Positions 2-22,595 of a DNA stretch of 23,011 nt are shown piece after piece. The notes beneath the pieces are model-generated. The model did not search any database. It was not told the origin of the DNA and was given only the letters and a program-made list of their open reading frames with translations. The number at the start of each line of letters is the position of its first letter. Positions within the stretch are counted from its first letter, which is position 1. The stretch is from a virus. A program made the translations under genes and the position numbers. The stretch is from UHGV virus genome UHGV-0356582. The stretch is one strand, 5' to 3'.

Positions 2-727
2 TATACATCCTATGAGAAATATCTGACCATCTCAGGAAAAAGAATTACTTCAAGTAAATCTGAGTGCCCACAGTGCCTTGAGGAGAAAATTCGTAAGAAA
101 GAGATTGAACGTGAGCAGGCAGAACAAAGAGCAAGACAATCAAAAATTGAATATTTGTTGAATTCTCTCAATATTCCAGAGAGGTTCAAAAATTGCACTC
201 TTCAGAATTATGAGCCTGTTAACGATGATGCAAAGCGAGTTCTTAAGGTATGCCAGGCATATGCCAGTAAGTGGCCTGAACGCCTTCAGAAAGGTGGCGG
301 ACTGGTCATGTGTGGTAAGCCTGGAACTGGAAAGAACCACCTTGCACTGGCTATCGCTAGGCACGCCATTATCGAGCATCAAAGCTCTGTGATATTTACC
401 ACTGCGTTGAAAATTGCCAGAGAGTACAAATCAACATGGTCTAAGGCCGCAACCAGAACTGAAGAAGAAGTCATTAGGCAATTTACGCATCCTGACTTGT
501 TAATAATCGATGAGGTTGGCGTGCAGTTCGGCAGTGATGCTGAAAAGCTAATCATGTTCGAAATTATCAACACCAGATATGAATACATGAAGCCAACAAT
601 CCTGATTAGTAATCAGAGCAAAGATGAACTTTCGGCATTCATTGGTGAGCGTGTTATTGACAGGATGAATGATGGCGGCGGATGCACCCTTGCGTTTACA
701 TGGGATAGTTACAGGAGCAGATCGTGA
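2..727 (+). CDS. DnaC-like replicative helicase loader (AAA+ ATPase), 5'-truncated by window edge
   Basis: Reading frame is open from position 2 with no upstream stop. Walker A-like motif CGKPGTGKNHLA and Walker B-like LLIIDEVG. N-terminal Cys pair (ECPQC) typical of phage DnaC-type loaders. Sits upstream of the nin region as in lambdoid replication modules. Confidence 0.8.
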   Translation, partial: YTSYEKYLTISGKRITSSKSECPQCLEEKIRKKEIEREQAEQRARQSKIEYLLNSLNIPERFKNCTLQNYEPVNDDAKRVLKVCQAYASKWPERLQKGGGLVMCGKPGTGKNHLALAIARHAIIEHQSSVIFTTALKIAREYKSTWSKAATRTEEEVIRQFTHPDLLIIDEVGVQFGSDAEKLIMFEIINTRYEYMKPTILISNQSKDELSAFIGERVIDRMNDGGGCTLAFTWDSYRSRS

Positions 728-1014
728 CTGGAAAAGAAATCATCCTGGAATATCTGAAAACTCATGAACAATTCTCCCCACATGAATTAGCTCTGATCAC
801 CGGAATACCAAATAACAGAATCGCTCAAGCAGCAAGGCATATGGTGAAACAAGGGCATTTGAGTGTTGTTGAGCGTAAGTGGAAGACGGTTATTTATGCG
901 AAACGCAAAGTGAAGAAGGAGCCAATTAAAAGAAATCCAGATGGTACGGGGTGGGGATGTGCAAATCCAATGACGGCGTTTATTAATAGGGCGCTTATGG
1001 AGGTAAGGCAATGA
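724..1014 (+). CDS. hypothetical protein, 96 aa, possible winged-helix DNA-binding fold; occupies the ren-equivalent position
   Basis: GTG start overlaps the dnaC-like stop (GTGA). AGGAG at 713-717. Basic C-terminal half. No confident family assignment. Confidence 0.5.
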   Translation: MTGKEIILEYLKTHEQFSPHELALITGIPNNRIAQAARHMVKQGHLSVVERKWKTVIYAKRKVKKEPIKRNPDGTGWGCANPMTAFINRALMEVRQ

Positions 1015-1280
1015 ATAAAAAACAATTAGCCATTCTCGAAAAGGCATGGGATGCACAAATATCATGCGCTTTGAAAGAACAGGCACTACCAATAATCCAG
1101 ACCAAATCGAAAATAGCCAGGCAGTTATGCGATGACGGATTCCTGAACGAAGTTGAGATTACGCGCCAGATGGTAACGTTCAAAGGGTATGAGATAAATC
1201 ATCATGGTATAGCGGCGTATTGCTCCCACCTTCCTGATGACGTTGACATTGATGAAATGGAAAGGGAGATGAAGCAATGA
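1011..1280 (+). CDS. hypothetical protein, 89 aa
   Basis: ATG overlaps the previous stop (ATGA), suggesting translational coupling. GGAGG at 998-1002. No recognisable motif. Confidence 0.5.
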   Translation: MNKKQLAILEKAWDAQISCALKEQALPIIQTKSKIARQLCDDGFLNEVEITRQMVTFKGYEINHHGIAAYCSHLPDDVDIDEMEREMKQ

Positions 1281-1305
1281 CCATCTACATCACTGAGCTA
1301 ATAAC

Positions 1306-1337
1306 AGGCCTGCTGGTAATCGCAGGCCTTTTTATTT
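1306..1337 (+). terminator. intrinsic terminator upstream of ninB (tR2-like position)
   Basis: Perfect 8-bp stem AGGCCTGC (1306-1313) / GCAGGCCT (1322-1329), 8-nt loop, followed by TTTTATTT. Confidence 0.6.
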
Positions 1338-1353
1338 GGGGGAGAGGGAAGTC

Positions 1354-1770
1354 ATGAAAAAACTAACCTTTGAAATTCGATCCCCAGAACATCAGCAAAA
1401 CGCTATTCACGCGGTACAGCAAATTCTTCCAGACCCAACCAAACCAATCGTAGTAACCATTCAGGAACGCAACCGCAGCATTCGGCAAAATGCACGCCTT
1501 CACGCGATGCTATCTGAAATAAGTAAGAAGGCTACATATCATGGAAAAGCAAGAAATATTGAGTTTTGGAAGGGGTTATTCGTTTCTGGTTGGCAGATTG
1601 CAACCAACCAGCACCCTGAGATTATATCAGGGTTAGAAGGTGAGCTAATAAACATCAGAGAGAGTACGGCGACTCTATCTGTAAAAAAAATATCCGAAAT
1701 AATGGACTACATAGAAGCATATTGTGCCATGAACTCAATTCATCTTAGCGAATGGAGGAATTATGATTGA
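1354..1770 (+). CDS. ninB: NinB-family recombination protein; N-terminal ~50 codons lambda-type, remainder divergent and AT-rich (chimeric)
   Basis: MKKLTFEIRSPEHQQNAIHAVQQILPDPTKPIVVTIQERNRS matches my recollection of lambda NinB almost exactly. GGGAGAGGGAAG RBS before the ATG at 1354. The ORF-track start at 1336 lies inside the terminator T-tract and is unlikely. Confidence 0.85.
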   Translation: MKKLTFEIRSPEHQQNAIHAVQQILPDPTKPIVVTIQERNRSIRQNARLHAMLSEISKKATYHGKARNIEFWKGLFVSGWQIATNQHPEIISGLEGELINIRESTATLSVKKISEIMDYIEAYCAMNSIHLSEWRNYD

Positions 1771-21699: not shown

Positions 21700-22188
21700 T
21701 TATCTGATGTTACTGCTACTGTTGCATGTTACCGTGTTTCCAAATCCTGAATTGCAGTTTGTATATGTGTCAACGCGTGTTGGGTAAGGTTGAGTTATAA
21801 CAGGCTGGCGCGCTTTTTGCTCGATAGCTTGCATTGTGTTTACAGCCTGATAATTCAATAAAGCCTGCTGGAATGCTTGGCTTTGTGCTATTTGTTGGGC
21901 TTGTTCTTGGCTTTGTAATTGAACATAAAGATTCTGAAGCTCAAGTCTTGCCTGTGCGTCACTTATCTTGCCTTCATCAACACCTTGCCCGAGCATCTTT
22001 GCAGCAAGGACATACAGCTTAGGTGTTGGTGCAGATGCCATGCGTGAGTCGTTCTTCACACTGGCATCAAGGCAATTAGCCATATCGCTAAGCTTTTGAT
22101 AGCGTTGTTCGCAACTTGCTTGATAGTCACTTACTTTTGCGCATCCAACCAGCAGAAGCGGGATAATTAACAGTGATTTTTTCATATG
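21700..22188 (-). CDS. predicted lipoprotein, about 162 aa, Gln-rich middle and Cys-containing C-terminus
   Basis: Start ATG at 22186-22188 on the minus strand, preceded by AGGAGAG. Signal peptide MKKSLLIIPLLLVGC with a lipobox. AT-rich. Opposite strand to the structural operon, at the P22 sieA/immI position. Confidence 0.7.
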   Translation of the reverse strand, partial: HMKKSLLIIPLLLVGCAKVSDYQASCEQRYQKLSDMANCLDASVKNDSRMASAPTPKLYVLAAKMLGQGVDEGKISDAQARLELQNLYVQLQSQEQAQQIAQSQAFQQALLNYQAVNTMQAIEQKARQPVITQPYPTRVDTYTNCNSGFGNTVTCNSSSNIR

Positions 22189-22255
22189 GTTAACTCTCCT
22201 TAGTTTTTCACAGGATATCATGAAGGCAATGCCATTTTAGCCGGAAACTAGATTT

Positions 22256-22522
22256 CTATGTTTCCTTTTTATTATTGCTATACATGGTCTTAAGCGTTTC
22301 AAAAACCATTTTCTTAACCATATCGGATTGTTGTTCTGCCATACGCTCTGCATCGTCAATGTAAACTGATGCAGAGCTTTGTTTATCCAATGATTCCTCA
22401 ATCGCTGCAATTATCTCTGAGTTCAGCGATCTGTTATTCATCTTCGCACGCTGTTTAATTTTCGCGTGGAGTTCATGCGGAAGTCTCAAGTGAAACTGCG
22501 CCTCGTCGTATTTGCTGTACAT
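22256..22522 (-). CDS. mnt: Mnt-like ribbon-helix-helix repressor (Arc/MetJ superfamily)
   Basis: FHLRLPHELHAKIKQRAKMNNRSLNSEII... and ...DDAERMAEQQSDMVKKMVFETLK... parallel P22 Mnt (NFRMPMEVREKLKFRAEANGRSMNSELL... / ...NDAERLADEQSELVKKMVFDTLK...). Start taken at the internal ATG (22522); the upstream in-frame ATG at 22555 lacks an RBS. Confidence 0.8.
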   Translation of the reverse strand: MYSKYDEAQFHLRLPHELHAKIKQRAKMNNRSLNSEIIAAIEESLDKQSSASVYIDDAERMAEQQSDMVKKMVFETLKTMYSNNKKET

Positions 22523-22595
22523 CCTTGATGCCTCACCAGGTGGGTGGAATGGCATCGTAACTTACTGGATAAATACTCAATAGTACCATTTCGGT

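Follow-up and report, generated by a model that had tools for sequence, protein, structure and literature searches.

A Ren-like gene and a phrog_2239 gene in the ren slot of the lambdoid virus genome UHGV-0356582

ORF1 and ORF2 are two small open reading frames (ORFs) of 96 and 89 amino acids (aa) in a stretch of 23,011 nucleotides (nt), the window, of the virus genome UHGV-0356582. They lie in the slot that holds ren in phage lambda. ORF1 is assigned by its sequence to the Ren family, of which it is a divergent member, and ORF2 belongs to phrog_2239, an unrelated family to which no function has been assigned. It is probable that the locus as a whole combines a Ren-type early gene with an unrelated second gene, the two having been joined by recombination at the ATGA motif in which their reading frames overlap. 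Both ORFs are real genes and not chance ORFs, because they match phrog_1687 and phrog_2239, respectively, because ORF2 has relatives in 244 sequence clusters, and because the ORF2 model has a predicted local distance difference score (pLDDT) of 91.7.

An earlier note on this DNA had placed two unrecognized small ORFs between a helicase loader and ninB, at the position equivalent to ren. The ORFs are present there, flanked by genes that match the Pfam families IstB_IS21 and NinB, and the slot is that of lambda ren, upstream of ninA, the tR2 terminator, and ninB. The label “unrecognized” does not hold for ORF1, because it is a homolog of lambda Ren and near-identical proteins are publicly annotated as Ren-like. 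ORF1, tR2, ninA, and the ATGA chain are known from earlier work, and the ORF2 family is already catalogued; the predicted winged-helix fold of ORF2 and the cassette behavior of the slot are modest additions to this picture.

ORF1 and the Ren family

ORF1 resembles lambda Ren (translated from NC_001416) most clearly in its N-terminal part, where 43% of the residues are identical over positions 1-58 (BLASTP E 3e-15). The N-terminal MTGKE and the 96-aa length are common to both proteins. Two PHROG families are matched: phrog_1687, which carries the label “MarR family transcription regulator”, at E 6e-40, and phrog_142, labeled “Ren-like exclusion protein”, at E 3.5e-13. A profile built from ORF1 and five phage Ren proteins retrieves 397 proteins, and for many of these the source gives the name “protein ren”. 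In the family alignment, the Ren homology extends to the C-terminal “DGT..C.N ... AM/F..R.L” region of ORF1, which differs from the Ren family by a Lys-rich insertion and a 6-residue deletion. The Ren motif TNxIFxECRxSxAMKRVLxVYG is aligned weakly with CANPM------TAFINRALM in ORF1, where the 6-residue deletion is located and where the model has a pLDDT of <50 (residues 65-71 and 74-86). Proteins that are identical or 99% identical to ORF1 occur in four phages; in CurroJimenez_Bas106 and mEpX1 the annotation reads “Ren-like exclusion protein” or “putative Ren protein”, and in Louie and Dewey “MarR family transcription regulator”. Together, these matches place ORF1 in the phrog_1687 subfamily of the Ren family.

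The AlphaFold model of ORF1 takes on a winged-helix fold at aa 1-60 (pLDDT 85-91), which is in line with the small winged-helix protein that the earlier note had suspected. The predicted fold is followed by a Lys-rich disordered linker (61-81) and a C-terminal helix of low confidence (82-94). ORF1 is a basic protein with an isoelectric point (pI) of 10.1, and the median pI of the Ren family is 10.0.

Two other assignments of ORF1 were tried and rejected. Membership in the MarR family (Pfam PF12802/PF01047) was judged by the Pfam gathering threshold and by the typical architecture of ~140 aa, in which N- and C-terminal dimerization helices flank the winged helix. MarR_2 is matched with 17.8 bits against a cutoff of 27, and the 96-aa ORF1 has one winged helix of 60 aa and no dimerization helices of the MarR kind. 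The second candidate is the Z-alpha domain of ADAR1, ZBP1, and poxvirus E3L-like proteins, whose conserved contact residues are Asn173, Tyr177, and Trp195. Weak sequence matches between the Ren family and Z-alpha domains recur (E 0.1-0.6), and none of the Z-alpha matches is significant (all E >0.05). ORF1 is not filed as a Z-alpha domain because the consensus of the Ren profile has a Leu opposite ADAR1 Tyr177. In the ADAR1 alignment, the register of which was read by eye, Tyr177 stands opposite Arg38 and Asn173 opposite Ala34 of ORF1; ORF1 does have the conserved wing Trp (W53), at a position beyond the printed ADAR1 alignment.

The family also contains a larger variant. A prophage of Intestinirhabdus alba (locus L008, 3549-4004) encodes a 151-aa protein with two tandem Ren-like winged helices and a C-terminal tail like that of ORF1 (GNPLTAFINQALREV). 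Such a double winged-helix protein accounts for the length of the phrog_1687 profile (162 positions) and for its match to ORF1 in two stretches. In phages of Klebsiella and Enterobacter, Ren-family genes are found directly behind DnaB-type helicase genes (L005, 1201-1494; L006, 1099-1500). The rule that ren accompanies initiator/helicase-loader modules, as put forward in the supplement of bioRxiv 10.1101/2021.04.19.439022, is therefore not strict.

ORF2 and the assortment of the two genes

ORF2 matches phrog_2239 over the whole profile (positions 1-89/89, E 3.2e-63), and this is also the sole PHROG that is matched by its diverged relatives (42/42). No Pfam and no NCBIfam model matches ORF2. 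With tblastn, ORF2 is found in 115 phage records, in 114 of which the identity is 95-100%. The phages include many Stx1- and Stx2-converting (Shiga toxin-converting) phages as well as ST104 (orf30), BTP1, Emek, and mEpX2, and the annotated gene that is overlapped by the 5′ end of ORF2 in these records usually encodes a DnaB-like helicase. When 1.84 billion representatives were searched exhaustively with HMMER, 244 ORF2 clusters were found at E <= 1e-3. Among the best 150 of the 244 clusters, the length varies from 52 to 192 aa, and the names and taxonomy of the distant relatives are those of anonymous metagenomic proteins throughout.

Four positions (L9, G43, G66, and C71) are invariant across 42 diverged members of the family. 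Many distant members carry a second cysteine 2-5 residues past C71 (YCxxC, YCTSDRC), which the enterobacterial proteins lack; the cysteine pair could form a metal or disulfide site at a dimer interface. The AlphaFold model of ORF2 starts with a long helix 1, continues with a loop that contains the conserved QTKSK, and goes on to a short recognition helix and a β-hairpin wing, after which a further helix and an acidic tail helix are predicted. The winged-helix core spans aa 1-73 and the tail aa 74-89. The protein is acidic (pI 5.3), and the tail residues 74-89 bear a net charge of ~-5. In its topology and in its structural similarity to solved winged-helix domains, the model agrees with a winged-helix fold, which is accordingly the predicted fold of ORF2. 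A Foldseek search of the model against viral predicted structures (BFVD) returned nothing at E <= 1e-3. Sequence matches to the PDB are not significant for either the ORF1 or the ORF2 family, the best being CheF-C (E 0.13), with PscE, PapI, and Z-alpha at E 0.06-0.6.

The searches by profile hidden Markov models and structure prediction that the earlier note had proposed placed ORF1 in the Ren family and pointed to a winged helix in both proteins; for ORF2 they returned phrog_2239 and no significant PDB match by sequence. Homology to housekeeping replication proteins was not detected for ORF1 or ORF2; the note had named such homology to accessory proteins as one sign that would speak against its reading of the two genes as anti-exclusion or host-takeover factors. 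ORF2 as a diverged paralog of Ren was rejected, as hhalign gives a probability of 2.7% for the Ren profile against the ORF2 profile and BLASTP finds no match. ORF29 of BP-4795, a 92-aa gene after ren/ninA, shows no similarity to ORF2.

The two genes occur mostly apart. ORF1 alone abuts ninA/tR2 in the phages Louie, N7, and mEpX1, ORF2 alone directly follows the helicase gene in ST104, mEpX2, and Stx phages, and the ren slot is empty in P22 and Nil2. Among 5426 complete Escherichia coli genomes, 277 carry ORF1 and/or ORF2, and the adjacent pair is present in seven of these 277; two phage records have it as well. In an evenly spaced sample of the E. coli matches, ORF1 alone mostly adjoins a DnaC-like “ATP-binding protein”, and ORF2 alone always adjoins a DnaB-like helicase or a toprim-domain protein. 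ORF1 and ORF2 are not a functional pair but independently assorting cassettes, which seldom occur side by side.

The joint between the cassettes is sharp. In a three-way alignment, the homology switches exactly at the ATGA at 1011-1014, to the left of which the window follows Louie (ORF1 alone) and to the right of which it follows ST104 (ORF2 alone). The boundary of the megablast match falls at query position 412, which corresponds to window position 1011 and agrees with the three-way alignment.

With a close alignment, a scan of genome contigs gave only three loci. The pairing recurs once, in a diverged form, in the I. alba prophage, where the tandem Ren-like protein is followed, after an ATGA overlap, by an ORF2 homolog (57% identity) and the two stand behind a primase-helicase gene. 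A Pantoea prophage carries the ORF2 homolog directly after the primase-helicase gene, and in a Pseudescherichia contig it follows a 123-aa gene of unknown kind. For the distant relatives, the neighborhoods of 27 distinct IMG/VR loci (30 returned) were compared. The commonest identifiable neighbors are replication genes (DnaB_C three times, lambda_P twice, IstB twice, Toprim, and DnaT), and the gene immediately upstream varies (Ant, DnaB, HNH-like, a methylase neighbor, or unknown). A universal adjacency of ORF2 to replication genes is not supported among these distant relatives.

The overlapping gene chain, tR2, and ninA

ORF1 and ORF2 are embedded in a chain of overlapping genes (Table 1) that reads DnaC-GTGA-ORF1-ATGA-ORF2-ATGA-ninA(tR2 inside)-ATGA-ninB. 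The overlaps that the earlier note had described are both present: the start of ORF1 overlaps the stop of the loader gene in the GTGA at 724-727 (loader stop TGA at 725-727), and the start of ORF2 overlaps the stop of ORF1 in the ATGA at 1011-1014. Altogether, four stop/start overlaps follow each other (724, 1011, 1277, and 1354), each with a Shine–Dalgarno sequence (SD) 6-8 nt upstream; for ORF1 and ORF2 the distance from SD to start is 6-7 nt. The 5′ end of the loader gene lies beyond the window, and its product is named “DnaC-like helicase loader” in phage CurroJimenez, where this region is identical. The chain has the sequence features of a translationally coupled nin region, and coupling of ORF1 and ORF2 to the loader gene is likely on this ground. 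Tight ATGA chaining of the lambda nin genes has long been established (Kroger & Hobom 1982, as cited in PMC4824070; PMC8022706).

Table 1. Features of the chain from the helicase-loader gene to ninB, in window coordinates
Feature	Position	Strand	Characteristics and basis
DnaC-like helicase-loader gene, 3′ part	2..727	+	Pfam IstB_IS21 E 2.4e-18; Bac_DnaA E 6.8e-08
ORF1	724..1014	+	96 aa, GTG start within GTGA; SD AGGAG 713-717
ORF2	1011..1280	+	89 aa, ATG start within ATGA; SD GGAGG 999-1003
Mosaic joint at ATGA	1011..1014	.	Three-way alignment, megablast boundary
ninA (lambda Orf26) mini-ORF	1277..1357	+	26 codons, MTIYITELITGLLVIAGLFIWGRGKS; SD GGGAG 1264-1268
Intrinsic terminator, assigned to tR2	1306..1339	+	Hairpin 1306-1329 plus T-tract; terminator scan, RNA fold
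ninB (orf-family recombination mediator), first gene past tR2	1354..1770	+	Pfam NinB E 1.2e-40

The earlier note had the ORF pair end at a strong terminator. A hairpin and a T-tract are present there, as both the terminator scan and the RNA fold indicate: the hairpin at 1306-1329 consists of 8 bp, of which 6 are G-C, and is followed by TTTTTATTT. Between the ATGA at 1277 and the ninB start, the window and the lambda ren-ninB spacer differ by one base, and so do the window and the ST104 orf30-ninB spacer. In phage Nil2 the corresponding element bears the annotation “tR2 terminator”, in phage 21 that of “terminator”, and the terminator of the window is identified by this comparison as lambda tR2. 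What the note had missed is the mini-ORF around the terminator. The 81 nt that contain tR2 also encode a 26-codon ORF (MTIYITELITGLLVIAGLFIWGRGKS), whose ATG overlaps the stop of ORF2 and whose TGA overlaps the ATG of ninB. This ORF is ninA of P22 and Orf26 of lambda; it is annotated as ninA in P22 and Nil2 and as “similar to lambda Orf26” in phage 21.

The tR2 hairpin starts 25 nt past the stop of ORF2, and the ren stop of lambda is spaced alike. In Li et al. (PMC4824070), the sequence upstream of tR2 is the natural lambda sequence, and the initiation site of NinA was found by experiment to be “not weak”. In the same work, ninA translation lowers the efficiency of tR2 by only ~10%, ribosomes closer than ~27 nt to the hairpin repress tR2, and the maximal termination efficiency is taken as ~0.9. 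Compared with the window, the P22 sequence upstream of the hairpin has three synonymous codon changes and one change from Ile to Val. In HK97, a mini-ORF is retained (gp56, 32 aa, with the same MTIYITELITG start) around a different hairpin and T-tract. Because of these two comparisons, it is suggested that the ninA reading frame and the terminator are maintained together.

The window represents the right arm of a lambdoid temperate coliphage or prophage that is P22-like (Lederbergvirus-type). Its best whole-window matches are vB_EcoP-720R6, CUS-3, and Kapi1, with an identity of 94-96% over 53-67% of the window. From the window start, the genes are ordered as helicase loader, ORF1, ORF2, ninA, ninB, an HNH/NUMOD4 endonuclease gene, ninE, and ninF; these are followed by an 89-aa gene of unknown kind, ninG, ninH, a phosphatase gene, and Q, after which lysis genes and P22-type morphogenesis genes are located. 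The endonuclease-like gene between ninB and ninE (1763-2365, 200 aa) overlaps the ninB stop, resembles HNH homing endonucleases (NUMOD4 E 1.5e-13, HNH_3 E 8e-12), and has probably entered the nin region as a mobile insertion. The 89-aa ORF between ninF and ninG (2704-2973) has no Pfam match and is a further uncharacterized gene of the nin chain. At the far end of the window, on the minus strand of 21700-22555, an Arc/Mnt-like ribbon-helix-helix gene (Arc E 1.2e-14, Repressor_Mnt E 3.8e-12) adjoins a 172-aa ORF without Pfam match, and this region looks like the immI-type region of P22. A promoter scan gave no excess over shuffled sequences, Rfam had no match anywhere in the whole window, and the PADLOC defense models gave matches at noise level only (E ~0.02).

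Possible functions and relation to known systems

In the explanation that is considered probable, ORF1 and ORF2 would close, as its final two genes, the early-right (pR) replication operon of a temperate coliphage of the P22-like or lambdoid kind. They fill the ren slot, with the last replication gene on one side and the ninA/tR2 terminator on the other, and would be expressed early and in translational coupling to the helicase-loader gene. ORF1 most likely takes the role of lambda Ren, i.e. that of a nonessential accessory of the initiator/DnaC-loader replication module, and its homology suggests an anti-Rex function: a Ren-type protein would let the phage replicate in cells with a Rex-type abortive-infection system. 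Ren probably acts by binding to the Rex proteins, to the replication-initiation complex, or to both. The basic winged helix of ORF1 could bind DNA, Rex, or replication proteins, and its divergent C-terminus may set the partner specificity. ORF2, normally the sole occupant of the slot in Stx/P22-like phages behind a DnaB-type helicase or primase-helicase gene, would have been brought beside ORF1 by recombination at the 4-bp ATGA gene junction. It most likely acts in early infection as a small modulator of some host or phage partner, through protein binding or possibly DNA binding, and a protein-binding modulator, whether linked to counter-defense or to replication, is preferred with low confidence over a classical repressor. 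Anti-exclusion, as the earlier note had proposed, is for ORF2 just one possible role among several.

Ren has had a phenotype without a mechanism since 1980. In a heteroimmune lambda, ren mutants grow poorly on Rex+ lysogens, and suppressors of this defect lie in O and P (Toothman & Herskowitz 1980, as related in bioRxiv 10.1101/2021.04.19.439022). The same preprint states that RexB stabilizes O and that its authors suspect a replication-linked role of Ren. In bacterial two-hybrid assays both RexA and RexB interact with Ren, and the RexB-Ren interaction was also seen in yeast two-hybrid assays (bioRxiv 10.1101/2021.04.19.439022; PMC3224144). P-lethality and replicative killing do not need Ren (PMC3640518), and Ren is among the nonessential genes of the lambda nin region (PMC8022706). 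In prophages of enterohemorrhagic E. coli (EHEC), the ren genes are upregulated 77- to 91-fold with the early operon after ciprofloxacin treatment and are among the most strongly induced phage genes (PMC11125564).

Several observations weigh against the combination of a Ren-type gene with an unrelated ORF2 as described above. The statement that ORF1 works like Ren carries over a phenotype and not a mechanism. The C-terminal third of ORF1 is shortened, has diverged from lambda Ren, and is modeled with low confidence, and this third could be the partner-specific part of the protein. ORF2 has no detectable homology to Ren (hhalign 2.7%), and its charge is opposite to that of Ren. The distant relatives of ORF2 do not consistently stand beside replication genes, which makes its position a weak guide to its function. 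In CurroJimenez (PQ850599.1 20000-32700), which contains an identical ORF1-ORF2 module, no rexAB-like genes are annotated beside the repressor gene; the Ren-like gene would consequently act against the Rex of resident prophages and not against its own.

It is possible, if somewhat unlikely, that ORF1 and ORF2 are not counter-defense genes but accessories of the replication module, which would tune helicase loading, the stability of the origin complex, membrane tethering, or the theta-to-rolling-circle switch. Both are chained by overlaps to the replication gene that precedes them. The suppressors in O and P, the stabilization of O by RexB, and the replication role proposed for Ren in the preprint fit such a role. 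Enterobacterial ORF2 usually overlaps the 3′ end of a DnaB-like helicase or toprim primase-helicase gene, and replication genes are the most frequent identifiable neighbors of its distant relatives. On the other side, Ren is listed as nonessential in lambda (PMC8022706) and the slot is empty in P22 and Nil2. The gene directly upstream of distant ORF2 relatives is often not a replication gene, and ORF2 is found behind three types of replication module and here behind a Ren-like gene, which speaks against a module-specific partner. Quite improbable is a role of ORF1 and/or ORF2 as sequence-specific transcription factors of the MarR/PadR winged-helix type for phage or host promoters, given the subthreshold MarR_2 score and the missing dimerization helices of ORF1, the acidic charge and the short recognition helix of ORF2, and the lack of a significant PDB sequence match for either family.

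ORF2 might also be an evolutionary passenger that is kept by linkage and ATGA recombination and has no significant function in this phage, which is regarded as highly improbable. It stands here away from its usual helicase neighbor, and the ORF1+ORF2 arrangement is rare (7/5426 complete E. coli genomes and two phage records); however, the gene is intact and preceded by a good SD, it is conserved at 95-100% in 114/115 phage records, and the family of 244 diverged clusters has invariant core residues and a fold predicted with high confidence. A more far-reaching reading is judged unlikely. The ren slot would then be a cassette-exchange hotspot for small winged-helix counter-defense proteins, and ORF2 would inhibit, or serve as a decoy for, some exclusion or abortive-infection system that is not Rex and that might, for instance, sense phage replication complexes. 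The Ren-like gene and ORF2 would stack two anti-exclusion specificities through recombination at the 4-bp ATGA.

If the preferred explanation is true, one slot is filled by three natural alternatives, namely a lambda-type Ren, the ORF1 subtype, and the unrelated ORF2 family, and natural phages with none, one, or two slot genes constitute a comparative set for the function of the slot. This set bears on the evasion of Rex or other abortive-infection systems versus replication control, and its use for the function of Ren and of the ren slot is the main value of the locus, which otherwise displays textbook lambdoid mosaicism at gene boundaries. Many Stx-converting EHEC prophages carry ORF2, and a role in early infection or induction, if true, would be of some medical relevance.

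Among known systems, the MarR/PadR/ArsR winged-helix repressors differ from the two proteins: ORF1 and ORF2 score below the thresholds of these families, both are much shorter than MarR and without its dimerization helices, and ORF2 is acidic. The direct counterparts of ORF2 are phrog_2239, ORF30 of ST104, and BAA84311 of VT2-Sakai, hypothetical proteins of Stx and P22-like phages to which ORF2 is 96-100% identical with a full-length profile match. The difference lies in the neighborhood, as the gene is located directly 3′ of a DnaB-like helicase or primase-helicase gene in ST104/VT2-Sakai-type phages and 3′ of the Ren-like gene here.

ORF1 shares with lambda Ren (UniProt P03761; phrog_142; NCBI “protein ren”) the predicted N-terminal winged helix, the length of 96 aa, and the basic charge, as well as the overlap with the preceding last replication gene and the position upstream of ninA/tR2/ninB. 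It differs from lambda Ren by its separate PHROG (phrog_1687), by the Lys-rich insertion, and by a shortened C-terminal motif (ANPMTAFINRALMEV in ORF1, TNLVFKECRQSAAMKRVLAVYG in Ren); moreover, it follows a DnaC-type loader gene, whereas ren follows a loader gene of the lambda-P type. The lambda order P-ATGA-ren-ATGA-Orf26/tR2-ATGA-ninB is the same in the window, except that ORF2 is interposed after ORF1. The tR2 and ninA of the window do not differ materially from those of lambda, the only difference being the gene whose stop overlaps the ninA start.

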